The notes beneath the pieces are model-generated. The model saw only the letters and a program-made list of their open reading frames with translations, searched no databases and was not told where the DNA came from. The position numbers and the translations under genes were made by a program. Shown piece after piece: positions 20,358-62,700 of a DNA stretch of 64,000 bases. How positions within the stretch are numbered: the stretch's first letter is position 1; every line of letters starts with the position of its first letter. Origin of the DNA: Tubulanus polymorphus (taxonomy: Eukaryota > Animalia > Nemertea); contig NC_134031.1 of NCBI RefSeq assembly GCF_964204645.1, forward strand, positions 10,790,088 through 10,854,087, given 5' to 3'.

Positions 20358-20673
20358 AGTAATAGGGGTTTAGTTGTTCTATACCAAAGGTCGAACGGTC
20401 GAGTTCATTAAAAACAAAATATTAAAAGTAATTTAAAACTATAACATATTTTCATAGCCGTGTGTATTTTATATTATAACTAAATATTTATTCTAAGATA
20501 TTAATAATTTAAATTTTAAAAGCATATTGTAAATAAATCAAATATATTCTATTATTTTACTAAAATACACACGGCTATGAAAATATATTATAGTTTTAAA
20601 TTACTTTTAATATTTGTTTTTAATGAACTCGACCATTCAACCTTTAATCTAGAACAACTAAACCCCTATTACT
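20358..20673. repeat. Terminal fold-back hairpin of Polinton A (within ~570-bp TIR)
   Basis: Arms ~113 bp: 20358-20470 vs 20561-20673. Confidence 0.93.
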
Positions 20674-20931
20674 CTTAAAATATTTATATACATGAATAAA
20701 ATATATATGAATAACATATAAATTGATAGATTATTCAATATAAAAGTAACGAGTAATTAACGAGCTCTTATAGAATAGATATATAGATATATTTTAAACA
20801 TATTTCAATATTTATATTTGTATGAGTTAGATTTTTAAACATTAAAAGTGTTAGTAAAGTGTGATTGAAAGAATTCATATTTAAATCATTGAACTTCTAA
20901 AATCAATTTAGTAAAAAAATATGTATAATAA

Positions 20932-22433
20932 ATGGAATCAGAACAACCACAAACTATCAATATTACAAATAACACTGGTGTCATAAACATATACTACAAG
21001 AAGTGTTCTAAATGTGAAATAGATAAATTCGCTATAACAGAATTTAATAAGCGTAAGATTAGCAAAGATGGTTTTCAATATTGCTGTAAAACTTGTACTA
21101 AACTATATACCAAACAATATCGAGAAGATAATAGAGAAGCTTACAATGATTATATGACAGAATATATGAGAGGAAAATATCAAACAGATCTTAATTTTTG
21201 ATTAAAACAATGTTTAAGATCTAGATTTACACAATTATTCAACAAAGAAACGCATTCAGAAACACTATCTAATTTATTAGGTTGTTCAGATAAATTTTTC
21301 ATATCATGGATAATATATCAATTCGACGATAAAATGAATATAGATAATTATGGTGAATACTTCCATATTGATCATGTGTTGCCGATTTCTAAATTTGACA
21401 TGAGTGATGATTATAATAAGAAGCTAATATGGAGCTGGAGAAATTTAAGACCTTTAGAAAAGAAGGAAAACATAATTAAATCTAACAAACTAGATATGAA
21501 ATTATATTTAGATCAACTGGATAAAGCAAAGACATTGGTTGAATTATGGAATTCAACACATAATGAAAAATACGTTGAAGCTTAAGCGCTTAGAAAACCG
21601 GTTACTCTCGATCTATGTCAAACCGCCTATATTTAATTGTATTAGGTTGTTTACAAAAACATCTGTGCCGCATTTTATATTCAGTTGAATGGGGTGTGCC
21701 TCATTTGAATATTGATCGAATGTGCTATTTCAGTTGAAAAGGATTAATCAATTACATCACAAAGGAACATCTGTTGCTCAGACAGTGTTTAGCTAGTGAA
21801 TAACTGGCAGTTATAAGCGCGCAGCACATAAGCATAGGAACGCATAGGATATTCTCTCTATAAACACAATTTTAGGAGTTTACAGTTATAAATGTAAGTA
21901 CTGTTTTTGTTGTTATTAAGGCGTCGGGAAACGTTAAGCATGTAAAACTTACCCTGGTAAGATGCGTCACAAATGGCCATGTTTAAGTGCTGTAATTAAT
22001 ATTTTACAACTACAACTTCAAGTTAGTTTTATTCTACACTAGATATTTATCTTTTAGATAACAAAATGAAGACCATTGAATCAAGAAAGTGAAGATGGAT
22101 GGATGTGGAATCAGAAATAATGGATATTTCAACTCATGAAACTGTAGCAGTTTAGCCTTACTGTATAGGCTTTCAATGCATTACGTTTGTCGGAATTTCA
22201 ATTGCGTCATTAAGCTGTTGTTAATGACACACAGTGACAGATGTTGTATTATACTTTATTAATTCCTGCATTCCACGCATACCTTACCGCTCCTGAGCCG
22301 AGCGGCTTGGAATGTGGAAATCGATAATTATCGTAGAATAAAATATATGTGTGTTTATGAAATAGTATTTCCACCAGTCGTTTCTTTGAATTTATTTTCA
22401 GTTTGAGGATTTATTATCGAGAATCCAAAATGA
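20932..22433 (+). pseudogene. Zn-finger/HNH endonuclease-like gene of Polinton A (premature stop; 827-bp insertion near 3' end)
   Basis: CSKC..CCKTC, HIDHVLP..NLRPL..EN..KSNK; homolog of 40019-40696. Confidence 0.75.
21581..22407. other. Unclassified 827-bp insertion in Polinton A
   Basis: Absent from B; removing it restores YVEGFIIENPK* (B: YVEEFDIKDPK*); higher GC than the element. Confidence 0.75.
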
Positions 22434-22737
22434 CTTACCTGGACAGTTATAATTGCTGCTCCTAATAGATAAACAATAGTAGTGAGATATTAAATCCTTA
22501 TTTAAATAGAATATAATTAAAAAAAACAATAACTTCAACTAGCTAGTGAATTCTATTTTAATTTTTTATATTTTCTTTTGCAATTCTTGTTAACACTAGA
22601 TTGAATAGATTTTGATAAGATTCGAATAAAAATTCTTCACCTTTAACTAACCTAGTCAATTAAGTATTAACCCAAAGAGATACTAATATCATTTTATAGT
22701 ACTTATAATATTTTTTTCGCTTTTTTCTCTAATATAA

Positions 22738-23340
22738 ATGTCAAAGAAATCGAGTAAGAATAGTATTGATATTGAAAAAACATTAGATGATTTGGGTATA
22801 AGTGATAATAAGGATCCAGTTGTGTCTAATTCTATTCAAGTTAATAACAATATTGATTATGAATACTACTTATATTGTAAGCACCATCTTGAATTACTAA
22901 TTGCTAGCGGGAAGTGTAAACAATTTTTAGCTAAGACCATTACTTTTCAAGAATTAGATGCTATGAAACCAGATAAAGTAATAAAATATTTTAAGATTTA
23001 TGAAGAAGCTAGATTAGCTAGAATAAATGATTATATTTCAGATGGTATTGTCAAATGTTATTCAAAATTATGTAACCGGTTAATATCAATTGATGATGAA
23101 AATAAATTATATGGTGATTTGAAAAATGACTACTTAGTTATGACTGAATTACAAAAATGGGTTGGTTATCCTTCATTTCAATTAGGATCGGTTATGACAT
23201 TAATTTCTACTGGCGTCATAACATTTTCGAATATCAAACCTATGGAATATAAATCAGGTAAGAACGAAACAGATGTACTACAACCAAGCGGTGAAACAGA
23301 AAATGAATCAGAACAAAAATTAACTAAAATAAATGAGTGA
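22738..23340 (+). CDS. Polinton A hypothetical protein
   Basis: Intact ORF, homolog of 41001-41609. Confidence 0.8.
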   Translation: MSKKSSKNSIDIEKTLDDLGISDNKDPVVSNSIQVNNNIDYEYYLYCKHHLELLIASGKCKQFLAKTITFQELDAMKPDKVIKYFKIYEEARLARINDYISDGIVKCYSKLCNRLISIDDENKLYGDLKNDYLVMTELQKWVGYPSFQLGSVMTLISTGVITFSNIKPMEYKSGKNETDVLQPSGETENESEQKLTKINE

Positions 23341-23707
23341 TGGTGTTAAGAAAAAGGATAGATCCGAGAAACAAATTAAATGGGCAAGAGAATTAGGTAA
23401 AAGATCTGCAGAATTAAAAAAAGCTAAGAAAAAGAAATTAACTGATATAAATGAATCACAGAAATTATCTGATATTGATTCAAAGAATAATCCATCTGAT
23501 AGATTCAGCACAGCTGAATCTCATAATTACTTATATATTACAATTGGATTAGTAACAGTTATTATATTCTCTGGTGTAATATATAAATATAAGTATAAAT
23601 CTGATTATAACAATAATGATTCCAATGATAATAAACCTATCATACCAGAAAATAAGTCAAATCATAAAGTCATTGAAACTAAATCTAAATTATTATTAAT
23701 GGATTAA
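23333..23707 (+). CDS. Polinton A basic protein with one transmembrane helix
   Basis: K-rich N-terminus, hydrophobic YLYITIGLVTVIIFSGVIY; homolog of 41602-41955. Confidence 0.75.
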   Translation: MSDGVKKKDRSEKQIKWARELGKRSAELKKAKKKKLTDINESQKLSDIDSKNNPSDRFSTAESHNYLYITIGLVTVIIFSGVIYKYKYKSDYNNNDSNDNKPIIPENKSNHKVIETKSKLLLMD

Positions 23708-23713
23708 AATAAG

Positions 23714-24805
23714 ATGAAAAAAGAACAATATTTAAGAGAGTTATATTATAACCCAGAAAGTGAAGTATCATATTCTAGCGTTTCAGAATTATGGGGTAAA
23801 ATTAAATCTGATAAAGAAAATGGCAATATAAAATATAGTGAATTAAAATCATGGTTACAAAATCAACCAACATATCAAATCCACAAGAAAATGGATAAAA
23901 CTTATTCAACAAGAAAAGTTATGGTTTCATATATCGATCAACAATGGCAAGCAGATTTAATTGACATGAAGAACTTAGAGGAATACAACAAAGGATATTT
24001 CTGGATATTAAATGTTATAGACATATTCAGTAGATACGCATGGTCAATTCCAATCAAAAATAAAACTGGTATAGAAATGACAAATGCTTTTAAATCAATA
24101 TTTAAAGAAGCTATTCCAGATAAGATACAATTTGATGAAGGTAAGGAATTCTATAATAAACATTTTAAAAAACTATTATCTGATAACAATGTAGATTATT
24201 TTTCAACACATTCAGATAAAAAAGCATCTATTATAGAAAGATTTAATAAAACATTGAAAACTAGAATGTGGAAATATTTTACTGCTAATGAAACATATAA
24301 ATATATCGATGCGTTAGATGATTTAGTGATAGGTTATAATAATTCTAAACATAGTTCTATTAATATGAAACCTATACAAGCTAGAAAAGAAGATAATTCA
24401 GAAATAGTTTGGAATAATTTATATGGAGCGTTTGTTACACATGATTTCGGTGAACCTAGATTTAAAATAGGACAACACGTTAGAATATCTAAATATAGAA
24501 AAACATTTTATAAAGGTTATACCTCTAATTTTACAGAAGAAATATTCAAGATTAAAAAGATAATATTAACTAAACCTTTTGTTTATAAACTAGAAGATTT
24601 AAAAGATGAAGAAATATTAGGTTATTTCCATGAACAAGAATTATCACTTGTACCAAATCCAGATGAAATAGAATACAAAATAGAAAAAGTATTGAAAACA
24701 AAAACTCTTAAAGGAAAAAAGTATTCTTTGGTGAAATATAAAGGATATGATGATAAATTTAATGAATGGATTTTATCTAGTAAAATTAAAATAATAAATG
24801 AATAA
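23714..24805 (+). CDS. Retroviral-like (rve) integrase with C-terminal chromodomain
   Basis: WQADLID, QFDEGKEF, IIERFNKT; C-terminal YKIEKVL..SLVKYKGYDDKFNEWI. Confidence 0.95.
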   Translation: MKKEQYLRELYYNPESEVSYSSVSELWGKIKSDKENGNIKYSELKSWLQNQPTYQIHKKMDKTYSTRKVMVSYIDQQWQADLIDMKNLEEYNKGYFWILNVIDIFSRYAWSIPIKNKTGIEMTNAFKSIFKEAIPDKIQFDEGKEFYNKHFKKLLSDNNVDYFSTHSDKKASIIERFNKTLKTRMWKYFTANETYKYIDALDDLVIGYNNSKHSSINMKPIQARKEDNSEIVWNNLYGAFVTHDFGEPRFKIGQHVRISKYRKTFYKGYTSNFTEEIFKIKKIILTKPFVYKLEDLKDEEILGYFHEQELSLVPNPDEIEYKIEKVLKTKTLKGKKYSLVKYKGYDDKFNEWILSSKIKIINE

Positions 24806-25196
24806 AGATTTATTTATATTTGAACCGCATAATATGTTAGTTACTGGTGTAACCAACTGTGGTAAAACACATTTCATATTAGACTTGTTAGAAACTATTT
24901 ATAAGAATCATTTTGATAATATAATATTATTCTGCCCTACTTATGAAATGAATAAAACATATAATAGAGATATAGTTAAGATGAAAAAGGTTATTATATT
25001 AGATCCTAAAACAGTAAAAGAAAATTTAGACAATTGTATTAAAATAGCAATTGATACTTATAAAGGATCAAATATATTATTCATTATAGATGATTGCGCA
25101 AATTTACATGATTCAAAAGTTAGAGAAAGTGAGTTATGTTATTTAGCTTTCTCTGGGAGACATTTCGGGATAACAAAAATATACGTTTTCTCTTAA
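24798..25196 (+). pseudogene. Packaging ATPase (FtsK/A32-like), C-terminally truncated
   Basis: Walker A GVTNCGKT, Walker B IIDD, GRH; diverges from B immediately after GRHFGIT. Confidence 0.88.
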
Positions 25197-25287
25197 TAAA
25201 AATAAAAATAGATTATTTTATAACTATTTCTATACTTAGATTAATAATTTACATTTTTAATTTAAAAAATAAATATCTATATATTTG

Positions 25288-25377
25288 TGTACTAGACGTA
25301 CGAGTAAGAAAGTAAGATTTCTTAGATTCTTGGATTCTTACCAAGATTCTTACTTTCTTACTCGTACGTCTAGTACA
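25288..25377. terminator. Perfect 30-bp inverted repeat at the convergent gene junction (putative terminator/3'-end signal)
   Basis: TGTACTAGACGTACGAGTAAGAAAGTAAGA (25288-25317) and its exact reverse complement (25348-25377). Confidence 0.55.
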
Positions 25378-25404
25378 TAGATATATAAATTAGTTTTATA
25401 ATAA

Positions 25405-26661
25405 TTATTCTAATTTTGTTTCTAATACTTTTATAAAATCATCTCTGTTTATATCTAATTCATCTAAATTCTTAGGTATATTTATTAATTTTAGTCGAGC
25501 CATCTTAACATAATTATTAGTAGGTATATCAGCTTTTTCTCTTAATTTTTCTAAGTATTCATCAAAATCATCATAATCAAAATCAAAATGATATCTAAAA
25601 TTATTTATCAGATAACTTAAATCTATTTTTCTAAAATATGATAATTTATAAATTTGTTCAGGATTATCTTCTGCATAAGCTAATGATTTATCAAATAACA
25701 ACTTATAGAATATATAATATTGGTTAGTTTTAGGATTAAAATATTTGATATATTTCTTTGGGTTATTTAACAATGGTATCATACTCACCATTTTATAAAC
25801 ATTAATTAGATGTAATTTTGATTTATAATGAGTATTTTCATCAACAGGTTCAATTTTCTTATTACAATATTGACACGTTTTATTTCTTTCTATTTCTTCT
25901 AATTTCTTTTCATTTTCTTCTAACACCCTTTCATTTTCTGTATGCGTTTGAGATTTTTTATGTTTAGAAAATTTACTTTTAGAAATATCTAAATCACAAA
26001 TGTTACAATGTTTTTTAGAATCATCAATTGTTTCATTATCATTAGTTTCAATTGTATCAACATTATCTGTTATATTATCTATGGTATCTTTTGTTTCAAT
26101 TGTATTAACATTATCTATGATGTTATCTATTATATTATCATCAGATATATTATTATCATTATTATTCTTTTCTTTTTCTATATGTTTCTTTGATTTCTTA
26201 TGTGATGCCCAATTTTTATATGATATATATTTCTTACATACATCACAATATTTTTCATTTGTCTTTTTGGTTTTGATATCAGGTTCAATCTTATCATTAT
26301 TAGATGTAGAAGGTAAAACATTATTAGATGTAGAAGGTATTATATTATTAGATGTAGAAGGTATTACATTATTAGATGTAGAAGGTATTACATTATTAGA
26401 TGTAGAAGGTATTACATTATTAGATGTAGAAGGTATTACATTATTAGATGTAGTAGGTATAACATTATTATCAATTATATTACTTAAATTATCAACAACA
26501 CCACTTTTATTATTATCGATTTCTATTAGTTTAGTTTTATAAATCTTAAAAATAGGATCAAATATCAAAGCTATATTACAAGGTATTACATAATATAATC
26601 CATCATTATTTTCAGGGGTATCGATATATGGAATATGTTTATATACTTTACCTCCTTCCAT
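25405..26661 (-). CDS. Polinton A protein with 8-aa repeats and three C2H2-like zinc fingers
   Basis: (NNVIPSTS)x7 encoded by a 24-bp repeat; CDVC..H..H, CNIC..H..H, CQYC..H..H. Confidence 0.8.
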   Translation of the reverse strand: MEGGKVYKHIPYIDTPENNDGLYYVIPCNIALIFDPIFKIYKTKLIEIDNNKSGVVDNLSNIIDNNVIPTTSNNVIPSTSNNVIPSTSNNVIPSTSNNVIPSTSNNIIPSTSNNVLPSTSNNDKIEPDIKTKKTNEKYCDVCKKYISYKNWASHKKSKKHIEKEKNNNDNNISDDNIIDNIIDNVNTIETKDTIDNITDNVDTIETNDNETIDDSKKHCNICDLDISKSKFSKHKKSQTHTENERVLEENEKKLEEIERNKTCQYCNKKIEPVDENTHYKSKLHLINVYKMVSMIPLLNNPKKYIKYFNPKTNQYYIFYKLLFDKSLAYAEDNPEQIYKLSYFRKIDLSYLINNFRYHFDFDYDDFDEYLEKLREKADIPTNNYVKMARLKLINIPKNLDELDINRDDFIKVLETKLE

Positions 26662-26694
26662 TTATTATATAAATTTTTTTTTAAAGTTAAAATT

Positions 26695-27944
26695 CTAATA
26701 CATAACACTATTTAATTGAGAATTTACAATATTTAATTGCGCGTCAGATATAATATAAATGTCCATTTTAAAATTTTTGATTCCTTTATTCTTTGTCATG
26801 AATAATTGTATTCCATCTTTAGTGTTCTGTAATTTTTTTCCAGAACCATGTAATGAATTATCCTCTGTTGTTCTAAAATCTAACCATAATGCATATTTAT
26901 TACCGGTATAATAATCAATTTGATTAATATTACAATTTTCAGATGATTTTACTTTTTCATTCAAAAAATGTTTTCTAATTTCTGGCAATTGACCTATCAT
27001 TCTCATTCCTTGACAAAATATTTTATTTGCTATTCCTTCAAAAGTTATTTCTACTTTTGTTATTTCAGGATTATAATAATTATCAAGATTTATTGCGCCA
27101 TTTGAATATGTAGCAATTGTAAAAAATATTGATATACCTTTAATAGATCTTCTTGGGAAGTTAATATTCTCATTAATAATTTCATCATTTGCATTAATAG
27201 ATACAGTTTTAAATTTATCAATATAATCATATAATAATGAAAATCCTTGATTGTATTGGTTTGAATTGTGTTAGCAATATTTTCATCAGTTACTGTATCA
27301 TATTCTAAACATATATTCGATAATTTATAACCCATATCTTTATTAACGCTAGATATTACAATTTCATTAACAGGAGCAAATGTTATTTCGAATATAACAT
27401 CTTCTTGAATTGCGTATTTATATAAAGGCGCATTATTATTTATCAATTCAAAGTCTAATGGAATTTTACATTTGCTTCCATATATTCTTTTTATCAATTT
27501 ATCTATAGCAGTAGTTAATATTGCATTATGTGCTTCTGATCTTAATTTATTTTGGTTTTCTGGTTGGATTCCTTGAAATATCATATTATTTCTATTTTCC
27601 TTAATTTAACCATAAATCTTTATAATGCATAAATAAATTATAATCATCTAATGAGAAAACTGTTTCTGGGCCGATCTTTATAGTTAATTTTTTATAATCA
27701 AATATCTTCCAACATTATCAACAACATAATTATTATTATTACCAGTTACTTTTATATCGGCTGATAAATAAATACTATTTGGAACATAAAAAGTATTTTG
27801 TGTTAATCGAGGGATTCTAACATATAAAGTTTTATCAGGATTAATATTAGAAGGGTTATGAGTAATTATATGATGTGATCTTTCTGCTTTAATAGCATTA
27901 GATATTCTAGAAATCTTAGAAGGACTTATATAACTCCCACTCAT
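26695..27944 (-). pseudogene. Major capsid protein (double jelly-roll, hexon-like) of A, frameshifted
   Basis: ORFs 27684-27944, 27090-27584, 26695-27006; ITHNPSNI..VRIP, CLEYDTV, YALWLDFRTTEDNSLHGSG, DAQLNI. Confidence 0.8.
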
Positions 27945-30900
27945 TTATTTAACAAAAAAATTAATTATTTATTTTTTATTATGTTTATTTTTTATTATTT
28001 TTTCTTGATATTTTTTGATATCATATTCACTAATCCAAAAATAATAGCACTTACAACTGTAATTAAAAATAAAATAATATGTTCAGCAGCAAAGTGAAGA
28101 ATATTCCCTGCAGATTTCAATATAAAACCAACAATTGATGCAATAATTCCGGGTAAACCTGCAGCAGATTTTTTAGATAGTTCCCATTAATATTTTGCTA
28201 ATTTTTTTAAACCATCTTTTACTTTATCTTGTATAGAATTATTATCTGGGGGTTTATCCGGTTTATTGGGAGTAGGAGTAGATTTCAGTGAATTTGATAT
28301 AGCTAAACCTATTGTTGTGAATACCATAGTTACAGCTGTTAGAATTGAAAGAATTGTGATTCCTTCAAACTTAAATAATAATTTTATTCTATCTTTCAAT
28401 GATATGTCAGAATTTGGTTTTAGTATTAACTCTTTAACAACAACTTTTAATCTATTAATACAAAAATCATATGAATTTAATAATAATTTCATTTTTTCTT
28501 TCTGAAATTCTATGTTATATTTTAAATCATCAATTTCTTTTTCTAAATATGCATTTCTTTTTTTAAATTCAATTTCTTCAATAACTTTATTATCTCTATC
28601 TAATTTAAATTGTTCTGATTCTTTTCTTGATTTAAATAATTCATCTTCTAAAGTTCTAATTTCTAAATCTCTTATACTTTTATCATGCGCAATTTTATCA
28701 GCTTCATTTTGTATACTAATAATTTCTGTAATTGCTTTATCAGAAAATATATTTAAAGCTTCTAATTCTTGATGCATCAAGTAATCCATTTGGTAAAAGT
28801 TCTTCAATTGGTACTTTATTTGATTTAAGTTTACTAGTTTTGGAAGTTATATTCTGTTCAGAAGTTGTTTCTGTTTCTAAATTATTTTTGATTGTTTTAA
28901 ATAATTCATTAATTCTTTGTTTAAATACTTTTTTATTTTGATTTATTTTTTCTTGTGTTACATTTTCTATTTCATCAATAATACTTATTTTTTTTAATTC
29001 TATCTGGTTCTAATTTTTCCAAAATTGATTCTGCTAATATTTTGTCTTGATTTTTATAAGAGATATTAATATAATAATCTTCTTTCAAATGATAATAATA
29101 TTCGCCATCTAAAAATTTTAATTCTCTTACTAAAAGTCTAGCACCTCTATCATTTATATTATATCCAGAATCTTTAAATATAGGTTTGAATTTATACATT
29201 TGGTCTATATAATCTAAATCGTGTCTTACTAAATATGGATCTTCATATTTAGGATTTATTCTCAATTTAGATCTTCTATCAAATTCATCTGTTGATGGGG
29301 CTTTATAAACACTATCTGCTAAATTAGAATTATATGCTGATTCATCATCATTATCAATATTAGTTTCTGCACCATTATAATCATCAACAATATATCCTTC
29401 ATTATTAATTCCCATTTCTCGAGGGATTCTAACATATAAAGTTTCATCAGGATTAATATTAGAAGGGTTATGAGTAATTATATGATGTGATCTTTCTGCT
29501 TTAATAGCATTAGATATTCTAGAAATCTTAGAAGGACTTATATAACTCCCACTCATTTATTTAACAAAAAAATTAATTATTTATTTTTTACTATGTTTAT
29601 TTTTTATTATTTTTTCTTGATATTTTTTGATATCATATTCCCTAATCCAAAAATAATAGCACTTACAACTGTAATTAAAAATAAAATAATATGTTCAGCA
29701 GCTAAGTGAAGAATATTCCCTGCAGATTTCAATATAAAACCAACAATTGATGCAATAATTCCGGGTAAAGCTGCAGCAGATTTTTTAGATAGTTCCCATA
29801 AATATTTTGCTAATTCTTTAAAACCATCTTTTACTTTATCTTGTATAGAATTATTATCTGGGGGTTCATCCGGTTTATTGGGAGTAGGAGTAGATTTTAG
29901 TGAATTTGATATAGCTAAACCTATTGTTGTGAATACCATAGTTACAGCTGTTAGAATTGAAAGAATTGTGATTCCTTCAAACTTAAATAATAATTTTATT
30001 CTATCATTCAATGATATGTCAGAATTTCGTTTTAGTATTAACTCTTTAACAACAACTTTTAATCTATTAATACAATAATCAAATGATTTTAATAATAATT
30101 TCATTGTTTCTTTCTGAAATTCTATGTTATATTTTAAATCATCAATTTCTTTTTCAATTTGCATTTCTTTTTTTAAATTCAATTTCTTCAATAACTTTAT
30201 TATCTCTATCTAATTTTAATTGTTCTGATTCTTTTCTTGATTTAAATAATTCATCTTCTAAAGTTCTAATTTTTAAATCTCTTATACTTTTATCATGCGC
30301 AATTTTATCAGCTTCATTTTGTATACTAATAATTTCTGTAATTGCTTTATCAGAAAATATATTTAAAGCTTCTAATTCTTGATTTGTTGCATCAAGTAAT
30401 CCATTTGGTAAAAGTTCTTCAATTGGTACTTTATTTGATTTAAGTATACTAGTTTTGGAAGTTATTTTCTGTTCAGAAGTTGTTTCTGTTTCTAAATTAT
30501 TTTTGATTGTTTTAGATAATTCATTAATTCTTTGTTTAAATACTTTTTTATTTTGATTTATTTTTTCTTGTGTTACATTTTCTATTTCATTAATAATACT
30601 TATTTTTTTAATTCTATCTGGTTCTAATTTTTCCAAAGTTGATTCTGCTAATATTTTGTCTTGATTTTTATAAGAGATATTAATATAATAATCTTCTTTC
30701 AAATGATAATAATATTCGCCATCTAAACATTTTAATTCTCTTACTAAAAGTCTAGCACCTCTATCATTTATATTATATCCAGAATCTTTAAATATAGGTT
30801 TGAATTTATACATTTGTTCTATATAATCTTGATCTTGTCTTACTAAATATGGATCTTCATATTTAGGATTTATTCTCAATTTAGATCTTCTATCAAATTC

Positions 30901-31032
30901 ATCTGTTGATGGGACTTTATAAACACTATCTGCTAAATTAGAATTATATTCTGATTCATCATCATTATCAATATTAGTTTCTGCACCATTATAATCATCA
31001 TCAATACATCCTTCATTATCAATTCCCATTTC
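27807..31032. repeat. Tandem duplication of ~1.61 kb (27807-29418 / 29419-31032)
   Basis: Duplicates the membrane-protein gene and the capsid 5' end; chimeric ORF 28975-29556; TC microhomology at the junction. Confidence 0.9.
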
Positions 31033-31065
31033 TCCCATTTCATAATCTTCTCCACTTTCTGCCAT
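29607..31065 (-). pseudogene. Coiled-coil protein with C-terminal amphipathic/TM helices (candidate membrane-penetration protein), frameshifted; second copy ~27994-29418
   Basis: Acidic N-terminus, coiled coil, EGITILSILTAV.., AAALPGIIASIVGFILK. Confidence 0.7.
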
Positions 31066-31081
31066 TTACATAATAAAAAAA

Positions 31082-32396: not shown

Positions 32397-32411
32397 TTAT
32401 ATAATTAAAAA

Positions 32412-47648: not shown

Positions 47649-47663
47649 TTACATAATAAAAAA

Positions 47664-49958: not shown

Positions 49959-49982
49959 TTATTTAGCAAAAAAATTATGCAT

Positions 49983-50560: not shown

Positions 50561-50576
50561 TTATATAATGAAAAAA

Positions 50577-51331: not shown

Positions 51332-51345
51332 TTATTTTACATAGT

Positions 51346-51699: not shown

Positions 51700-51728
51700 T
51701 TATAATACATGTTTTTATTAAAATTTGA

Positions 51729-54700
51729 TTAACACGTTAGAATTCTTTTCATTATTTCCTTCTCTTTTGTTTCTTCTCTTTTAAATTTTAAGTATTCATC
51801 TAAATTGCAACCATATGCAACTGTATGAATTCCATCATCTAAAATATATCTTTTATCATCAAATGGGTTTAGACTTATCTTTTCAATTTCTTCAATAAAC
51901 ATTTCATGATCTTCAGATCTTAAACATCTCATCTTATGTTTTCTAACTTCTTCATTGAATATACAATTGATGTAATCTTTGAAATGAATATTCTTTTCTA
52001 CTACACTTTTGGTTATTCCTTTTAACTTTTTAGCTTCATGTTCTTTAGTTTTATATGAATACATTTTAGATCTAATACCGATGAATTCAATCATTTCTTC
52101 ACCGCCTAATTCATCCTTAAACTTCCCTGGAACTTTTTTATTATCATTGCTAAACAATTCATGATCTTTAGGATAGTTACTAAAATCAAAATGATGTTTT
52201 AATGTTTTTAAATCATCAGTTATGTTATCAGTTTTTATCTTTAATATGTAAGAATCGGTATCAAAATATAATATTTCTATATGTTTTTCTCCAAAAAGTG
52301 GTTGTAATACGTTATAATAGAATTCATACATCAATAGCTTTGATATTTCTAAAACTGAAGCGCCAACATAGATTGGTTTATTAAATTTCATTGATGTTCT
52401 TCTCATCTTAACTGCAGCTAAATTTTCATCAAATATTCTGTTACCAATGAACTAAGGATATGATTGTAAATGTCTAATTCTTTTTCCATTACTAACTAAC
52501 TCAATATCATTTCTATTTCTAATATTTTCACAAGTCTTACCATAGAATGCATTATTCATTAACTTGAAGAAATCTTTCTCGAAATCAGTTTTAGCTTCAG
52601 TTCTCTGTTTGGTGTTAAAATCTATATATTTTTCTAACCACTTAGATTGACTAAATGAAATATATCTATGTACTTTTTTTAGAATCATTCCTTGATTCAA
52701 ATAAAACTTCAACATTCTATAATGTACTACATAATTATATTTATCTTCTTGAGTTACCATTAACTTTTCTGCATGAATAAGATTTTCGGGTTTAATTCTT
52801 TTTTGGTAATTTGATAATTCTTCATGAGTTACAGTTTTATGTTCGGGACAGTAAGCTAGATTTCTAGATTTAAATTTAATATGTTCAGGATATTCTAAAT
52901 CTACAACGAAGAAGTAACCAGTATCTGAATCATCTGCAATATCTAGAATTCTTTTCTTCCAATCAAATTTATCATTATTTTCATTCTGTAAAACTTCAGT
53001 TATTTGAAATACTCCATAAGGTTGTGGTTCCATCATTGCCCAACCATACAAATTATTTGCATCTATATATAATAACTTATATCCAGGGTTATCATTTACA
53101 TTGAAATATCTATCACCTAATACACCCGAAACTCCTCCTCTTATAGATTTTTCAAATAATAGTAATTGATCTATATTTGTTAACAAATCCATTTTTATAT
53201 CTGTAAGTTTTAATCCACAATCCCATGTTAAACCTGGTGATGAATAACAATGACAAGGATCAATGTTAAAATATTTTAGGTTTACATCTCTAAACCTTTC
53301 GAATAGATCAGTTAATAATAATACATCTGATTTTAGATATAAATCTACTAATTGCCCATGATTTTCTATTTTGAAATGATTCCAAATATTCAATGTTCTA
53401 TTATATACTTCATCTTTAACATATTCATTTTTTAATTCATCATAGAATTGTTCTTTTAATAATTCAGTTATATTGAAATCATTATGTGATTTATAAAATG
53501 AATATGGAATTGCTCCTTAACATCTCATTAATTGAAAATCATCATTATTTGGGTAATATTCTTTTAATATTTTTAATTCAGCATCAACTAATGATTTTGA
53601 TAAGTTATCTAATGAACTATTTAAAAATCTATATGAATCTATAAATCTTAAACACCCAAATTGGACTTATATATAATTCTCAGATGTTTTAGCTAACATT
53701 CTAAATTTATAAGTTGGTATTTTATCTTTTGATCTATTTGAATTTAATCTTTCTATTTCATTATTAATTTCTTCTATTTTATGGCATAACTGTTTGATGA
53801 ATAAATGTGCATCATATCCTGATAGATTATGAAATATAACTGGAACAAAGTTAATTTTCTTAGCTTGTAAGTTAAAATTCTCATGTGCGGCACCTCTAAA
53901 CTTTCCATTCAAATGATCATGGTCTCTTACTTTTTTATCTTTATAATTAAATATCTTTTCACAATAATAACATTTATCTGCAAACGCAAATTCTTCTTTA
54001 TCTTCTTCTGTCATTATAATTTCTATATTTGTATTCAATAATTTACTAAATCTTATTTCATATTCAATTAATAAGTCACAAAAATGATTGATAACATTTT
54101 CATTTCTATAATCATAATATTCACTTTCAATTAGTTCTGGATAATCAGATTTAATATATAACCCGAAAGCTGCAGCTGATTGATGAATCTTTTTAATAGT
54201 ATTTGTTTTTGGTGGTTCTTCAGAATAATCATTTTCATTAGAATTTAATTTCTTTCTCTTATAATATATTTCTTTTCTATCTTGATCGGTTAATTCTTTA
54301 TTTAATGATTCAAAATCTCCATATATAACAAATGGTACTTTATTTCTGTAATCATATTTTTTGAATTCTAATATTTTATCTTTTTCATTTGGTAAAACTA
54401 ATTTACAATAATCATGATTTTCACATAATTGTTTATGATTTAATAATGCACTTTCAGTTCTGAATTTATGTAAACATTTTCTACATAGATATATTTTATT
54501 ATCAAAATCATTTTCTGATTTAAAAAATAAATCGATTCTTTTAATCCACATATAATGATTCTCATAATATATTATATCTATAACATCGTTTGAATCATAA
54601 TCTTTTGATAGATATAAAGGTTCTAATGTATAATGTTTTATATTGTTACCTTTTGTATTCGGTAATTTGATTAAATCAAATACATTTATCTTTATATTAT

Positions 54701-55753
54701 TATCTCTTTCTATCTTTTAATTCTAACAGGATACTTATCTATCTTATAATTATTTTCAAATGGTTTATAATGAGTTAATCTACAAATATTATAAGTTGCA
54801 GGATGTAAACAACTTATCATAGTCCATAGAAAACATTTATCATCTTCATTTTGTACATTTATAACAGCATTAGTTTTAAATGGTAGTTTAATATAACTCG
54901 ATGCTTCAATATCTGGTTCTTTATAATATGATACATTATTTTCATCAATCGGTTTTGATTTAGTTAACTTATTATATTTTGTGTTATAAACATGTAAAGT
55001 CATAAATATTATTTCATCAAATATTAAACCAGATCCTTCAAAATATTTCTCTTCTATTTTAGTTTTTACTTCATTATAACATTTATCTAATTTATCATCT
55101 ATATGTTGTTTAGATATAATATGTTGTGAATGAGAATTTATATTATATATTGGTTTATCTTCAGATTTTATAAACTTTACTTTAAATTATATACTAATTT
55201 TAGGATATTCAACATCAGTTATTATTTTTATTATTTCTTTCATATTTTCTAAATGTTTTTTATTTTCTTCTAATGTTTTTCCTTTATGAAATTTAAACTC
55301 GATAGCTGCTGGGCCAATATCACTTTTAAATGCTTCGGTTATCTCTATATCTTTTTTATTATCTAATGAATTAATATAATTTCTTACATCTTCCATGTAT
55401 GGTCTTTTATTGTTTAATTTATTTTTTATGCTTTTAATTGTCTTCTGTTTCTTATCATTATCTTTATCAAAATAATCTTCACCTAAAATATCATTATTCT
55501 TATTTCTAATATGGCTTTTTGATTTTAAATGTTCATTATAATATCTTTTATCACTGAATGATTGATTACATGTATCACATTTGTATGTTTCTTTTTCAAT
55601 CTTTAATTCATCTAATTTAGTTTCTAATATATCATCTTTATCTTCTAGTTACAATTTATTCTCTAAATGTGTTTTAGTTTTATTGTGTCTTGCTTTTTGG
55701 GATTTATCTATATTGATATTACATGTTGGACACTAGTACTTATTTGCTTCCAT
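51729..55753 (-). pseudogene. Protein-primed family B DNA polymerase with N-terminal Zn fingers and endonuclease VII-like insert, frameshifted
   Basis: YGDFES, FHNLSGYD, LYIDANNLYG, KLMNNAFYGK, YFDTDS; CYYC..VRDHDHLNGKFRGAAH. Confidence 0.95.
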
Positions 55754-55986
55754 TTTAATACTAAATTTTTTATTAAAATTGATTTTAGAAGTTCAATGAT
55801 TTATATCATGTATTATTTCAATCACACTTTACTAACACTTTTAATGTTTAAAAATCTAACTCATACAAATATAAATATTGAAATAATGTTTAAAATATAT
55901 CTATATATCTATTCTATAAGAGCTTACACTTTTATATTGAATAATCTGTCAATTTAAATGTTATTCATGTATATGATTATTTTAAG

Positions 55987-56179
55987 AGTAATAGGGGTTT
56001 AGTTGTTCTAGGTTAAAGGTTGAATGGTCGAGAAATTTTCCAAATGTGAAATAATTATAATTTCTACTTGAATTAGGAATGTGCGCGACTAATTCAAGTA
56101 GAAATTATCGTTATTTTCACATTTGGAAAATTTCTCGACCGTTCGACCTTTGATCTAGAACAACTAAACCCTTATTACT
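55987..56179. repeat. Right terminal hairpin of B (193 bp)
   Basis: Reverse complement of 39579-39771 and self-complementary. Confidence 0.95.
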
Positions 56180-58869
56180 GATGACTTTGAAATCTCATGG
56201 AATTACGAGCATTCTGGTATAATGGAGAAGAATTTAGAAATTAAACGAGACTTACCTGTAAGTTGAAGTTTGATTGTAATTCTTCGGAATTATACCAGAT
56301 GCGAGTGATTACATGCCCGCCCTTTTCTAATGCCCACCCATCTCGCATCTGGGTTTGTGTTAGAATATTATTTTTTCTTCTGTGTTTCATACAGATTAAT
56401 TTAAGAATTCTCGCATCTTTTTCGTTTTTATTGCGAAACGAATTTCATGCTTTTCTTTTACATCTATCTTGCCTCTTTAAGACTTTGAATAGTGACGTAA
56501 CGGAAGTAGCCTCAATCTCATGTAATCACTCGCATCTGGTATAATTCCGAAGAATTACAATCAAACTTCAACTTACAGGTAAGTCTCGTTTAATTTCTCA
56601 ATTAAATCGCTTGAAATCCGGATTTTTAATGCATACAGGCAGCATAATGAGGAAAACCCATTCACAAACCGTGCAAGGCAACTTAAACACTATGAGTATG
56701 CTCAATATTCCCTGCAAGACACAAAATATCTTATTTGAACGTTCATGTATAAAAGTAACATGGAGCAACTTTTATTTTGTCAACACGTTGATGGGCGACG
56801 GACTATGTCACTATGGTATTCTCTGAAGGAGGTAAATTAAATTTGACAGCTAGTTATATAAATGATGCAGCTTTTGGACAAAAGGGATCTAACTAAATTT
56901 CTTTTTAATTCACTGTGGAATGGAATGGAATGGAATGGATTGACGCCAATGGCATGCAGTAGGCCCCTACGTATGGGTCATACTAATTAGCGTCAACCAA
57001 TTAATCTAAATCGGGCAAACCATTCAACAACTGTGAATAATTAATTTGCTGTGGCGTGATAATAATTAGTTTTTTTGAAGAAATGACATACCAACTGTTA
57101 GAAAAATGTACCGATTCTTATTTTTAGACTACTACTGAATCTATAAAAGGAGGAGTCATAGACAAAGTTGATTTGCTTAGCTGGAGACACTTCTTGTCTA
57201 GTACATCATCTCAAGTACTGGGTGTTTTGTAAGTTTCAGTATTTATTTACTAAGTGCTGTTTTCTTGGACCTCAGGGCTTTCAAACTAGGCCCACCCCAT
57301 AGGCTATATAGTCCAGGGTGTATTAGCCACTATTCTTTTATATCCTACTAAAATGCACCTTTTTCTATTTTTAGATTCAGGCTTAGAATGTGCAAATTTT
57401 TTGAGATACTGAGAAATCAGATGGCACCAGTAAACTTCAACTGCGAAATTTGCAGCAGGATAGCTGAACGACACAATTTTTAAAAATAAAATGGCTATTC
57501 GAATGCTATTTCAATAATAACTTGATTCAACCAGAGAGAAATAAGTAAATTGCGGATGTACAGTACACCCACTTTTCTTCCCTGTTTCCTGGTACCAAAT
57601 TTTTAGTCTTAAGCTAAGCGATATTCTAAGGTATGCTAGTGGATTTCATTAGAATATGAAGCAATGGAACCAGAATTCTAGCCAGAGTTAAGCGAACTAT
57701 TGATTCTGATATAATGTAAGAACTGATTTCCTTTGTGTACTCTTGCAGAATATGTTACGTATTATTTCAAGCTGTTAAATAATATAGTTAGACAAACGTC
57801 CAATTATTGGATCTTTCTTGTTGACTCGTTTAATTTTGTGAGTTAAGAGTTCAAGTCAATCCACAATGTGCAGTGCCTAGCCTTCATCTACACTAAAGCC
57901 AAGCCTGTGTATGGGAAAATATCATTCGACTCCTATAGGCCAGACAAATCAAAGCATGCAATACATTGCAGATAGTAGTCTCCGGCAAGTCGAAAGAGAA
58001 AGTAAACCAGGTTCCGGGAACAAAGACACTTAAAGACTCCTTCCTCCTTGTAGAAATTGTAGAAATATGGCACCCAATCGTAGCAATGCTAAGTACAGTA
58101 TACTATGACGGTTGAACCTTTATTAACGAATTTCAATGACACCGAAAATAGAATCAAAATAATCATTAGTTCCGTGCTAGCACTTAATTTGGGTTATCAG
58201 GTTCAGCCTAACTGTACTTTCATTCAGCTACTACTTGTATGAGACTTGGCAATGATAAGTTGCAAGAAATCACCAAACATAAGAAAAAATATTGTGAATT
58301 AATATTACTGTAATTAAGAATGTATGCCAATGAAGTGATAACTTCATTGTTAGATCGTACCGGTATATGCACATAAAACTATGGCAAAAAAAAAACACAT
58401 CTAACAATCCACGCAATCCGCAATCGATCAAGTCGATCATGACAACGACCTTAAGGCATGTCTCTGTAACCGAAGGTAGAGCATAAAACACGGTTCAGGA
58501 CTCGTCAGCGGACACCGGCCCTGAAAACATTTCAAAACGTGTATTGTCGGTACCTAGCACGATTTCAGCGTTTTTCGGGAATTCCCTGAAATTTCGGCAT
58601 TTTTCGGAAATTCCCTGAAATTTCAGCGTTTTTATTTCAGCGTTTCAGCTTTTCAGTGTTTCAGCTTTTTCAGCGAAGTTCAGGAACCGCTGTAACAATA
58701 TCTGTAATTAGATATTTCTTATGGATTGTTAATTCTTTTTACTTCTTAAATTTATAATCTACTGATTTGACATTTGAAGTATCTTTTATTCTATCTAAAA
58801 ATAATTTGTTGTTCTCACTGTTTGCTTGTTTACTCTCCATTTATAATATATATTTTTATTAAAATTTGA

Positions 58870-59789
58870 TTAACACGTTAGAATCCTGTTCATTATTTCC
58901 TGCTCTATTGTTTCTTCTCTTTTAAATTTTAAGTATTCATCTAAATTGCAACCATAAGCAACTGTATGAATTCCATCATCTAAAATGTATCTTTTATCAT
59001 CAAATGGGTTTAGACTTATCTTTTCAATTTCTTCAATAAACATTTCATGATCTTCAGATCTTAAACATTTCATCTTATGTTTTCTAACTTCTTCATTGAA
59101 TATACAATTGATGTAATCTTTGAAATGAATATTCTTTTCTACTACACTTTTAGTAATTCCTTTCAATTTCTTTGATTCATGAGTTTTGGTTTTATAACTA
59201 TACATTTTAGATTTAATTCCTATGAACTCTATCATTTCTTTACCACCTAATTCATCCTTGAATTTACCGGGTCGCTTTTTATCATCATTGCTAAACAATT
59301 CATGATCTTTAGGATAATTACTGAAATCAAAATGATGTTTTAATGTTTTTAAATCATCAGTTATGTTATTAGTTTTTATCTTTAATATGTAAGAATCGGT
59401 ATCAAAATATAAGATTTCTATATGTTTTTCTCCAAAATGAGGTTGTAATACATTATAATAGAATTCATACATTAATAACTTTGATAATTCTAAAACTGAT
59501 GCTCCAACATAAATTGGTTTATTAAATTTCATAGATGTTCTTCTCATCTTAACTGCAGCTCAATTTTCATCAAATATTCTGTTACCTATAAATTTAGGAT
59601 ATGTTTGTAAATGTCTAATTCTTTTACCATTACTAACTAACTCAATATCATTTCTATTTCTAATATTTTCACAAGTCTTACCATAGAATGCATTATTCAT
59701 TAACTTGAAGAAATCCTTCTCGAAATCAGTTTTAGCTTCAGTTCTCTGTTTGGTGTTAAAATCTATATATTTTTCTAACCACTTAGATT
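58870..59789 (-). pseudogene. 3' part of Polinton A pPolB, cut by Polinton C
   Basis: KLMNNAFYGK, YFDTDS; collinear with B 51729-52648. Confidence 0.92.
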
Positions 59790-62700
59790 AGTAATAGGGG
59801 TAATAGGCTTTCAGATCAAAGGTCGAAAGGTCGAGCTCATAAAAAATGAAAAAATATGAAAATAACAATAATTTCTATTTGAATTAGGAGTGAAACTCAT
59901 AAAAAATGAAAAATAAATTCGAGCGTGCGAATATATTTTCATATTTTTCATTTTTTACTCCCTCGCCCTTTCAAACTTTAACCTGAAAGCCTATTACCCC
60001 TATTACTCTTAAAATATTCATATATATGGATAAAATATATATGAATAACATTTAAATTGACAGATTATTCAATATAAAAGTGTAAGCTCTTATAGAATAT
60101 ATAGATAGATACATTTTAAACATTATTTCAATATTCATATTTGTATGAGTTAGATTTTTAAACATTAAAAGTGTTAGTAAAGTGTGATTGAAATAATACA
60201 TGATATAAATAATTGAACTTCTAAAATCAATTTTAATAAAAAATGTAGTATTAAAATGGAAGCAAATAAGTACTACTGTTCAACATGTAATATCAATATA
60301 GATAAATCCCAAAAAGCAAGACACAATAAAACACATTTAGAGAATAAATTGAAACTAGAATATAAAGATGATATATTAGAAACTAAATTAGATGAATTAA
60401 AGAATGAAAAAGAAACATACAAATGTGATACATGTAATCAATCATTCAGTGATAAAAGATATTATAAAGAACATTTAAAATCTAAAAGTCATATTAGAAA
60501 TAAGAATAATGATATTTTAGGTGAAGATTATTTTGATAAAGATAATGATAAGAAACAGAAGACAATTAAAAGCATAAAAAATAAATTAAACAATAAAAGA
60601 CCATACATGGAAGATGTAAGAAAATATATTAATTTATTGGATAATAAAAAGGATATAGAGATAACCGAAGCATTTAAAAGTGATATTGGCCCAGCAGCTA
60701 TCGAGTTTAAATTTCATAAAGGAAAAACGTTAGAAGAAAATAAAAAACATTTAGAAAATATGAAAGAAATAATAAAAATAATAACTGATGTTGAATATCC
60801 TAAAATAAGTATTTCATCAAAAGTTAAATTCATAAAATCTGAAGATAAACCAATATATAATATAAATTATCATTCACAACATATTATATCTAAACAACAT
60901 ATAGATGATAAATTAGATAAATGTTATAATGAAGTAAAAACTAAAATAGAAGAGAAATATTTTGAAGGATCTGGTTTAATATTTGATGAAATAATATTTA
61001 TGACTTTACTTGTTTATAACACAAAATATAATAAGTTAACTAAATCTAAACCAATAGATGAAAATAATGTGTCATATTATAAAGAACCAGATATTGAAGC
61101 ATCGAGTTATATTAAACTACCATTTAAAACTAATGCTGTTATAAATGTACAAAATGAAGGTGATAAATGTTTTCTATGGGCTATAATTAAGTGCTTACAT
61201 CCTGCAACTGATAATATTTGTAGATTAACTCATTATAAACCATTTGAAAATAATTATAAGATAGATAAGTATCCTGTTATAATTAAAAACATCCCAAAAA
61301 TAGAAAGAGATAATAATATAAAGATAAATGTATTTGATTTAATCAAATTGCCAAATACAAAAGGTAACAATATAAAACATTATACATTAGAACCTTTATA
61401 CCTATCAAAAGATTATGATTCAAACGATGTTATAGATATATTATATTATATTATGAGAATCATTATATGTGGATTAAACAAATAGATTTATTCTTTAGAA
61501 CAGAAAGTGATCACCATAATAAAATATATCTATGTAGAAAATGTTTACATAAATTCAGTAATGAAAGTACATTATTAAATCATAAACAATTATGTGAAAA
61601 TCTTGATTATTGTAAATTAGTTTTACCAAATGAAAAGGATAAAATATTAGAATTCAAAAAATATGATTACAAAAATAAAGTACCATTTGTAATATATGGA
61701 GATTTTGAATCATTAAATAAAGAATTAACTGATCAAGATAGAAAAGAAATATATTATAAAAGAAAGAAATTAAATTGTAATGAAAATGATTTTTCAGATG
61801 AACCACCAAAAACAAATACAATTAAAAAGATTCATCAATCAGCTGCTGCTTTCGGGTTATGAGAATTGTAACTTACAAGCTAAGAAAATTAATTTTGTAC
61901 CAGTTATATTTCATAATCTATCAGGATATGATGCACATTTATTCATCAAACAGTTATGCCGTAAAATAGAAGAAATTAATAATGAAATAGTAAGATTAAA
62001 TTCAAATAGATCAAAAGATAAAATACCAACTTATAAATTTAGAATGATAGCTAAAACATCTGAGAATTATATATCATTCCAATTTGGTTGCCTAAGATTT
62101 ATAGATTCATATAGATTTTTAAATAGTTCATTAGATAACTTATCAAAATCATTAGTTGATGATGAATTAGAAATATCAAAGCAACACTACCCAAATAATG
62201 ATGATTTCCAATTAATGAGATATAAAGGCGCAATTCTATATTCTTTCTATTAAAATCATAATGATTTTAACATAACTGAATTATTGAAAGAACAATTCTA
62301 TGGTGAATTAAAAAATGAATATGTTAAAGATGAAGTATATAATAGAACATTGAATATTTGGAATCATTTCAAAATAGAAAATCATGGGCAATTAGTAGAT
62401 TTATATTTAAAATCAGATGTATTATTATTAACCGATATATTCGAAAGGTTTAGAGATGTAAACCTAAAATATTTCAATATTGATCCTTGTCATTGTTATT
62501 CAAGTCCAGGTTTAACATGGGATTGTGGATTAAAATTTACAGATATAAAAATGGATTTGTTAACAAATATAGATCAATTACTATTATTTGAAAAATCTAT
62601 AAGAGGAGGAGTTTCAGGTGTATTAGGGGATAGATATTTCAATGTAAATGATAACCCTGGATATAAGTTATTATATATAGGTGCAAATAATTTGTATGGT

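Follow-up and report, generated by a model that had tools for sequence, protein, structure and literature searches.

We find that three Polinton/Maverick elements, A, B, and C, lie in the window, i.e., the whole stretch of 64,000 nucleotides from Tubulanus polymorphus that was analysed. They are recognized as such by pPolB, integrase, ATPase, double-jelly-roll (DJR) capsid, TIRs, and TSD. The elements and the genes assigned in them are as follows:

20358..34837, plus strand: element A, first part, resuming at 58690-59789 past a nested insertion
34838..58689, no strand assigned: separate TIR element inserted in A, with ~233-bp TIRs and the 10-bp TSD CTGTAACAAT
39573..39578, plus strand: left TSD copy of B, GATGAC, 6 bp
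39579..56179, plus strand: element B, full-length Polinton of 16,601 bp, several genes frameshifted or stop-interrupted
40019..40696, plus strand: first ORF of B, inside the left TIR, weakly HNH-like (Pfam HNH_4, E 0.055)
41977..43071, plus strand: B retroviral-type integrase with chromodomain (Pfam rve, E 1.5e-9; Chromo, E 6e-4)
43072..43673, plus strand: B packaging ATPase in two frames (Pfam Pox_A32, E 8.4e-12)
44970..46189, minus strand: B double-jelly-roll major capsid gene in two frames, 72-77% identity to an ORF of the relative L007
50583-51316: ORF of B that we take to be a candidate minor capsid protein (DUF5901, E 0.002 only)
51732..55648, minus strand: a further feature of element B
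56180..56185, plus strand: right TSD copy of B, GATGAC, 6 bp
58690..59789, plus strand: continuation of A, carrying the 3' portion of polB (minus strand) and interrupted by the insertion of C
59790..64000, plus strand: element C, inserted in A polB in the opposite orientation and running off the window
60256..61485, plus strand: N-terminal part of the C polymerase, with zinc fingers, a terminal-protein (D1) domain with the EGSG Ser, and the OTU Cys motif

The separate TIR element contains B together with a DIRS-like retroelement. The TIRs of B are 91% identical over 452 columns, and the integrase of A matches Pfam rve at E 5.1e-9. The window polymerases are 68-83% identical to the intact polymerase of the relative L004, and the C pieces match Pfam DNA_pol_B_2 at E 2e-5 and 2e-4, values that fall short of the curated cut-off. 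The capsid copies in the window have no direct Pfam match but are 65-77% identical to the L007 ORF; in the atlas, that ORF has neighbours at 0.97 in which 10-24% of members bear Capsid_N/DJR families. A relative of the HNH-like ORF in L004 falls near atlas HNH clusters at 0.86-0.88, a lead only, and the single-sequence model of this ORF has a pLDDT of 35, too low to use. Among B open frames of at least 55 aa, no Pfam match to an adenovirus-type maturation protease was found and two motifs searched for were unmatched in B; a divergent or broken gene could escape such searches.

Each Polinton end in the window carries a long terminal fold-back followed by a stretch of ordinary TIR:

20358..20673, plus strand: left-end fold-back of A, 316 bp, arms at ~20358-20471 and 20561-20673
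20674..20920, plus strand: adjoining TIR of A, ~245 bp, inner limit approximate
39579..39771, plus strand: left-end fold-back of B, 193 bp, 12-nt loop
39772..40005, plus strand: left adjoining TIR of B, inner limit approximate
55765..55986, minus strand: right adjoining TIR of B, inner limit approximate
55987..56179, minus strand: right-end fold-back of B, 193 bp, oriented as the left
59790..60007, plus strand: polB-end fold-back of C, 218 bp, mirrored block at positions 13-23
59836-59853 and 59896-59913: 18-nt direct repeat in the interior of the C fold-back
60008..60245, plus strand: adjoining TIR of C, inner limit approximate

These coordinates and lengths agree exactly with those given by an earlier, sequence-only reading of this DNA, which also described the adjoining TIRs as highly similar between copies; they are 91.7-96.7% identical over aligned columns. 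All four ends (three elements) thus carry a fold-back of 193-316 bp, in the form of one long palindrome per end and not of clustered short palindromes. Every fold-back starts with AGTAAT, ends with ATTACT, and is followed inward by CTTAAAA, and in B base 1 of the palindrome directly adjoins the TSD. As DNA, the fold-backs fold at −57 to −108 kcal/mol, whereas 30 dinucleotide-shuffled versions of each strand reach −12 to −23 kcal/mol (z = −16 to −23). The predicted fold is blunt, with pairing running to the terminal base, and could in principle self-prime. The 5' strand is also strongly folded, the gap to the 3' strand being only 3-12 kcal/mol. That these structures are fold-back chimeras from assembly or library preparation is extremely improbable, because the arms are not exact mirrors and their differences recur at the same sites, as inherited, in three separate insertions with different flanks, and because B has an intact 6-bp TSD and ends that agree at 186/193 bases (96.4%).

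The arms fall into two zones. At positions 1-25, the two arms of an element differ from each other at 0-1 bases, while C differs from A/B at 9-10, which supports the earlier proposal of fold-back copying. At positions 26-46, the differences between outer and inner arm are fixed across elements, mismatch positions being common to all three; here, outer arms differ between elements at 0-2 positions and inner arms at 1-4. Since the outer arms remain steady while the inner arms drift, the outer sequence at positions 26-46 looks constrained. The earlier idea that structure rather than sequence is maintained therefore fits positions 1-25, which match within and differ between elements, but not the outer arm at 26-46. 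If 3' re-extension were frequent, the sequence gives no cause for it to stop at the terminus or to spare positions 26-46. Similarly, the sequence-only reading had described changes mirrored in both arms; the blocks that it quoted for A/B and C are present, but all 10 pairs changed on both sides are in C. Nine of these lie within one block at positions 13-23, which includes an exact repeat of positions 2-9, and the mirrored changes of C thus represent one or two events. The interiors, described as copy-specific, do give palindromes of different length (193 to 316 bp) but are partly homologous: those of B and C have 31 bp in common at 96.8%, and those of A and C a common start recognisable by eye. 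The C apex matches the B loop reversed (GAGTG, plus a second 8/9 match), which may be a loop inversion or equally a short mirrored copy. The interiors have no other substantial match in the window and the junction is identical at 4/4 ends; we therefore rejected a captured MITE as their source. Finally, the B-right adjoining TIR is nearest to C (96.7%) and the B-left adjoining TIR nearest to A (96.1%). Because the two B palindromes are nevertheless alike, the ends are also homogenised within an element.

A polymerase that in this lineage snaps back and copies itself might leave such palindromes as functionless by-products, together with a mutational polarity. In agreement with this, the C interior and the 13-23 block resemble single slippage events, A has an additional ~150-bp palindrome at its convergent gene junction, where relatives have inverted repeats while B has none, and the putative ends of distant relatives are plain. 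We consider this explanation unlikely, because 4/4 ends keep the palindrome at the same junction despite the differences in length, because the mismatch positions are fixed across three elements, because no matching mutational bias is seen in the body or the TIR, and because the outer arm retains three CpGs in elements with a CpG o/e of 0.38-0.60.

The mismatches between the arms also have a strand bias, a new point that the sequence-only reading missed. Beside eight transversions, the four stems contain 22 transition mismatches, and 22/22 read as G·T on the strand that has its 3' end at the terminus. They fall on 9-10 distinct sites; counted as nine (A88 taken as homologous to B70, C50 omitted), all are of the 3' type (binomial p 0.004), whereas restricting the count to the five inherited wobble sites raises p to 0.06. 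Of the columns eligible for a 3'-type wobble in the ungapped 46-bp stem, 7/26 carry one, versus 0/33 for the other strand (Fisher p 0.002), and 98.4% of cells are paired on the 3' strand versus 89.1% on the 5' strand. By contrast, the element body has no strand bias (singletons 21 vs 16, p 0.51), and six other inverted repeats used as a control show no polarity (13 vs 15), although 9 vs 0 is not significant against these repeats turned to their majority strand (20 vs 8; Fisher p 0.16). The predicted effect of these mismatches is better pairing on the strand that ends at the terminus. The polarity could instead reflect strand-specific C-to-T damage rather than selection, three of the sites being CpG. 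CpG decay as the sole source was rejected, since it would strike both strands and both arms and the CpG-site changes are 3/3 on the inner arm and on one strand. The polarity is equally compatible with an RNA hairpin, in which G·T becomes G·U: as RNA, the outward strand is the more stable by 11-32 kcal/mol. On outward or read-through transcripts, the structure might then terminate transcription or give rise to double-stranded RNA, a role that would fit the hairpins found where the genes of A and of relatives converge. We find this improbable, as the genes adjoining both ends point inward, an Rfam search gave 0 matches, and neither the pairing to the exact first base nor the homogenised positions 1-25 would be explained.

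Judging by its sequence, the polymerase has kept a terminal-protein domain with the predicted linking Ser. Ser122 is present in 64/64 alignment rows (alignment A4), as is the Cys of the OTU (D2) motifs; the OTU His is present in 63/64 and in the C frame lies past a frameshift. The domain model, made for the relative L004 (C is 70% identical), has a pLDDT of 84 and places the Ser between helix 2 and strand 4. Its top fold matches, at E 5e-3 and weaker (all E > 0.001), are Y-family polymerases, in agreement with the little-finger origin of the pPolB terminal-protein domain described in the available part of PMC11161782. These features bear on the suggestion of the sequence-only reading that the ends replicate by a self-primed rolling hairpin as in AAV and other parvoviruses, or resemble poxvirus hairpin telomeres. 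The blunt-paired 3' OH of the fold-back could prime, the C apex might record a loop inversion, vaccinia hairpins likewise depend on mismatches (PMC8956199, in part), and the same model has been proposed for Halocafeteria elements (bioRxiv 10.64898/2026.07.28.741278, in part). However, resolution in such systems randomly inverts the whole palindrome (PMC11575299, in part), whereas the stem has one orientation in 4/4 ends, weak evidence with three independent elements (p 0.25). Moreover, no Rep/HUH was found in B open frames by Pfam, the 18 motif matches having no family support, and the terminal-protein Ser and OTU motifs are kept. Thus, a parvovirus-like rolling hairpin is disfavoured and, in our view, quite unlikely; a single-orientation rolling hairpin, or self-priming followed by terminal-protein patching, is retained as a variant.

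We suggest, at slightly less than an even chance, that the 3' strand folds back when single-stranded and provides both a local duplex origin and a repair template for protein-primed replication. Among the alternatives offered by the sequence-only reading, terminus repair fits best. Once a strand is displaced, or the element is freed from the chromosome, the 3' end would pair with the inner copy ~200-300 nt away and, pairing locally, would not need to find the far TIR 16 kb away as in the adenovirus/PRD1 panhandle. The terminal protein-polymerase would then initiate on the hairpin duplex and copy first the outer arm, then the loop, then the inner arm; orientation and inner mismatches would thereby be inherited without flip/flop. 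Occasional trimming of the 3' end and re-extension on the inner arm would mirror new sequence onto both arms, as would mismatch repair or a switch of template within the hairpin; positions 1-25, position 39 of C, and the interiors may be such products. With G·T on one strand and A·C on the other, the 3' hairpin would stay continuous and the opposite hairpin would be weakened, making the integrated copy less prone to form a cruciform. Only three elements are available, which counts against this reading.

The hairpin might alternatively be an excision or rescue signal, in which a single-strand hairpin or cruciform with its base at the host-element border is cut, releasing the element. Candidate cutters would be the integrase, the EndoVII-like insert of the polymerase, the HNH-like ORF, or a host resolvase. 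Integron attC sites are strand-specific folded substrates and offer a parallel. The start of the palindrome at base 1, adjoining the TSD, would suit this role, as would the presence of the HNH-like ORF and of the EndoVII-like insert, which Pfam matches at E 1.5e-4 in L004 and at 0.0025 in B. Nevertheless, this alternative is doubtful: the EndoVII family is found on many of the 120 polymerase homologues listed and is not lineage-specific, C lacks the EndoVII-like stretch, the window has no solo palindrome (eight terminal-motif matches, all at the four ends), and the A·C mismatches of one strand speak against a cruciform. Combining these functions with 3' fold-back, we tentatively consider, as a possibility well below even, a strand-specific hairpin telomere with conserved wobbles and a bulge that would free or copy the element at the border, repair the 3' end, present the origin, and replace the panhandle. 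In the literature searched, no comparable hybrid end was found for any end-initiated protein-primed replicon.

Searches for further copies gave no match to the exact 19-nt junction pattern in viral contigs, to the integrase in viral contigs, or in the capsid search and the phage collection search. The metagenome scan kept 80/439 relatives; contigs of the closest of these 80 (81-83% integrase identity) stop before the termini. No long terminal fold-back was found among 15 GTDB loci and 18 IMG/VR loci, in checks of 12 and of 18 loci, and a motif-plus-palindrome screen of 98 loci gave one weak internal match. The L073 contig opens with an 81% inverted repeat but shows no end of the Polinton type. 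Four ends of distant relatives (L013, L024, L106, and L107), putative because they come without TSD or second TIR, have no long fold-back, suggesting that the wider group can do without the hairpin.

For Polintons, departure from the chromosome and the restart of synthesis on a single strand are described by models, the standard one having the two TIRs pair in a panhandle. The ends described here indicate, at the level of sequence, which of the strands becomes single-stranded and folds, and they offer a short substrate for an in vitro test. In other respects, the elements agree with Polintons/Mavericks as described in the available parts of PMC10748475 and PMC11161782, with a D1 plus D2 OTU pPolB, rve integrase, A32 ATPase, DJR capsid, TIRs (100-1500 bp in PMC10748475), a 6-bp TSD (5-8 bp in PMC10748475), a length of 16.6 kb, and EndoVII/HNH-bearing pPolB. 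They differ in that no adenain-type protease was detected and in the long terminal fold-back, which the available text of PMC10748475 does not mention for Polintons and that of PMC11161782 touches on only through "hairpin" in a reference title.

Terminal palindromes have already been published for protist virophages and PLVs. In Halocafeteria seosinensis endogenous virophages (subtypes 1, 2, 5, and 6) and PLV subtype 4, the palindrome lies in the TIR adjoining the TSD, as here, and a hairpin role in replication has been proposed (bioRxiv 10.64898/2026.07.28.741278, in part). Those palindromes measure 52 nt (subtype 5) and belong mostly to non-pPolB elements, as opposed to 193-316 nt in a pPolB Polinton with a terminal-protein domain; strand-biased mismatches or two-zone arms were not found in the available part of that account. 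Our observations show that terminal palindromes also occur in a pPolB element with a retained terminal protein, and a palindrome thus does not imply a hairpin in place of protein priming. The AAV ITR (PMC11575299, in part) and vaccinia ends (PMC8956199, in part) likewise have terminal palindromes of similar size, structure over sequence, and possibly functional mismatches; unlike these, the elements here show no Rep, no stem flip/flop among the four ends, a retained terminal protein, and integration by a DDE integrase with TSD.

The element resembles the adenovirus/phi29-type class of end-initiated replicons. In adenovirus and PRD1, the displaced strand is proposed to form a panhandle that rebuilds a duplex origin and restores end homology, although direct evidence for panhandles is lacking even there (PMC11886824, in part); in those systems the two ends pair together, whereas here each end could pair with itself. 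According to PMC5449611, 3' fold-back repair had not been reported for end-initiated replicons of this type; the paper describes it for the protein-capped linear DNA of Streptomyces, where the 3' single strand forms a fold-back on which Tap/Tpg extend a truncated 3' end ahead of protein priming. Streptomyces telomeres have several short palindromes, an internal origin, and unrelated proteins (PMC5449611, in part), and no Tap/Tpg families appeared in our Pfam scans. The likeness is functional only, and by this analogy Streptomyces Tap may be regarded as a precedent for 3' fold-back end repair combined with protein priming.

The terminal fold-backs belong to three Polintons, A, B and C, whose layout in the window makes four ends available: A-left, B-left, B-right and the polB end of C.

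Elements in the window
20358–34837, resuming at 58690–59789: element A, split by a separate TIR element
34838–58689: TIR element in A with ~233-bp TIRs and a 10-bp TSD, containing a DIRS-like retroelement and B
39579–56179: element B, a whole Polinton with the TSD GATGAC
Within polB of A, reversed relative to A and extending past the window edge: element C

B carries genes for an rve integrase with a chromodomain, an A32 ATPase, a capsid protein and, in pieces, a protein-primed polymerase; Pfam scans and a motif search of its open frames did not detect an adenain-type protease. Homologues with organism names come from invertebrate animals, which suggests that the host is an animal. The sequence-only reading had placed palindromes of 316 bp in A (20358–20673), 193 bp at each end of B and 218 bp in C (59790–60007), and the window sequence bears out these coordinates and lengths, with B's palindromes at 39579–39771 and 55987–56179. 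The window contains eight matches to the terminal motif; each of the four ends has two, which leaves none elsewhere. Folded with DNA parameters, the palindromes reach −57 to −108 kcal/mol, and 30 dinucleotide-shuffled sequences per strand give −12 to −23 kcal/mol (z −16 to −23). The fold-backs far exceed chance; they are a real part of a bona fide Polinton, and an artefact is hardly credible.

Other repeats and rearrangements accompany these elements. A DIRS-like RT/RNase H/tyrosine recombinase cassette (35593–39521) directly adjoins B within the TIR element. A contains a 1.6-kb tandem duplication, 97% identical, that extends over part of the capsid gene and the gene beside it (27807–31034), and a ~150-bp palindrome at a convergent gene junction (25258–25407), which B lacks; at this junction B has tandem repeats (43.7–44.1 kb), and three relatives have inverted repeats (L001 3033–3105, L003 1624–1713 and L007 9082–9359). 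The palindrome and inverted repeats at this junction are possibly transcript-end hairpins. The Polinton DNA (20358–64000) is CpG-depleted, with an o/e of 0.38–0.60 vs 0.83–0.96 in flanking DNA, and yet three CpGs persist in a tandem GGTCGA motif of the outer arm, the stem half at the element terminus.

The arms evolve in two zones, counted inward from the terminus. At positions 1–25, the arms within one element differ by 0–1 base, and C differs from A/B by 9–10. At positions 26–46, arms group by position, outer with outer and inner with inner: outer arms show 0–2 differences across elements and inner arms 1–4, while the outer and inner arms of one end differ by 4–5. In addition, near position 60 the outer arm bulges by one base within a run of A at all four ends; elements A and C have this bulge in a common run, element B in another. 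Mirrored covariation between arms had been proposed from the sequence. Ten two-sided changes do exist; however, all are in C, and nine lie at positions 13–23. Because positions 11–18 of C exactly repeat positions 2–9, these changes, apart from the one at position 39, look like a single slip that was mirrored in the two arms, and the pattern looks more like copying than many compensatory steps.

The interiors, described earlier as copy-specific, turned out to be partly homologous, with B and C sharing 31 bp at 96.8%. An 18-nt direct repeat in C's interior suggests a template jump, and C's apex, which matches B's loop read in reverse, may stem from an inversion or from mirrored copying of a short stretch. 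The palindromes of B-left and B-right are 96.4% alike without gaps, while each of B's adjoining TIRs has its closer match in another element, in the TIR on the same side (96.1% and 96.7%), and the two are 93.8% identical to each other, indicating that end-to-end copying also takes place.

Mismatches between arms were scored over stems of 114, 91, 90 and 74 nt picked from the arm alignments, with loops and C's rearranged interior left out. On the strand with its 3' end at the terminus, all 22 transition mismatches are G·T, which makes them A·C on the opposite strand; eight more mismatches are transversions. The 3'-terminus strand is minus at three ends and plus at B-right; thus, the bias tracks the element end rather than the chromosome. 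The 22 transitions collapse to nine distinct sites (p 0.004, with A88 taken as homologous to B70 and the poorly aligned C50 dropped), of which five are inherited by at least two elements (p 0.06 alone) and four are private. Within the ungapped first 46 bp, a 3'-type wobble occurs in 5/8 C columns and 2/18 A columns vs 0/17 G and 0/16 T columns (p 0.002). Paired cells make up 98.4% on the 3' strand vs 89.1% on the 5' strand. In the controls, singleton changes over 904 bp of the polymerase gene number 21 vs 16 (p 0.51), and six further inverted repeats give 13 vs 15. With each control repeat oriented by its majority strand, the counts become 20 vs 8; 9 vs 0 does not differ significantly from this (p 0.16), which counts against the polarity reading, as does the strong folding of the 5' strand. 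Host fold-back or MITE-like inverted repeats at 6959–7341, 9257–9343 and 56231–56603 served as controls; the last lies 51 bp past B's right end.

In L004, an intact relative, the polymerase N-terminus is 70% identical to C's frame. Its predicted model (pLDDT 84) shows strands and helices in the succession known from D1 terminal-protein domains; Ser122, with a Gly before and after it, sits between helix 2 and the final strand. The alignment has Ser122 and the OTU Cys in 64/64 rows each and the His in 63/64. Y-family polymerases are the best fold matches of this domain, at E values of 5e-3 or weaker, in agreement with the little-finger origin of D1 given in PMC11161782. An EndoVII-like insert, common among the homologues listed, is found in B and L004 and missing in C; at 61852–61859, C's polymerase lacks ~90 codons of B/L004, this insert included. 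The first ORF bears a weak resemblance to HNH proteins. In L004 (337–4849), the HNH-like ORF directly follows polB, and in L002 it is inverted and adjoins the integrase, so that it appears to move. Pfam scans and a motif search of B's open frames found no Rep/HUH protein, and rolling hairpin replication is quite improbable.

We tentatively favor a model, without giving it even odds, in which a 3' fold-back provides protein-primed replication with both a local duplex origin and a template for repair. The terminal 3' strand would fold back, giving a local duplex origin, and the fold-back would also template repair of the end. The model explains why pairing extends to the first base, why the mismatches are polarized, why a single orientation is seen, why 25 bp are homogenized and why the terminal protein has been retained. 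Beyond these sequence facts, we infer every step. Of the alternatives, we rate an excision signal as rather unlikely, a by-product as unlikely and an RNA structure as very unlikely.

None of the 113 loci examined beyond the window shows a matching end, and the closest relatives are contigs ending before the termini. Four putative ends of distant relatives have self-complementarity scores of 23–47 (shuffled maxima 32–38) vs 159–382 for the window ends. The hairpin appears lineage-specific, the comparison ends being putative. Among the relatives, L007, a close one with a different gene order, has a deoxynucleoside kinase gene (10340–10981; Pfam dNK E 1.7e-31). Polinton-type integrase relatives in contigs of bacterial metagenome-assembled genomes (L082, L083, L085 and L087) are probably host contamination. 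L073 starts with an 81% inverted repeat (1–854) upstream of Polinton genes that lacks a typical end motif and may be a host MITE or a broken end.

Terminal palindromes as such are already known: 10.64898/2026.07.28.741278 describes them adjoining the TSD in Halocafeteria virophages and PLV subtype 4, with a hairpin-priming model. The replication genes of those elements are mostly non-pPolB, and the supplements may list pPolB cases. A literature search on polinton/Maverick/adintovirus hairpins, palindromes and excision, covering few subscription papers and no Repbase notes, gave no other title among the matches listed. The available portions of PMC10748475, PMC11296320, 10.1101/2022.07.28.501842 and PMC6431247 contain no report of a terminal hairpin or palindrome, nor do those of 10.64898/2026.10.13.758929, where one figure marks a palindromic repeat. 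What seems new, judging from the sequences of three elements, is that a Polinton keeping its terminal protein has strand-biased wobbles together with arms evolving in two zones. Analogies can be drawn to Streptomyces telomeres (PMC5449611), the adenovirus/PRD1 panhandle (PMC11886824), the AAV ITR (PMC11575299) and vaccinia hairpins (PMC8956199).
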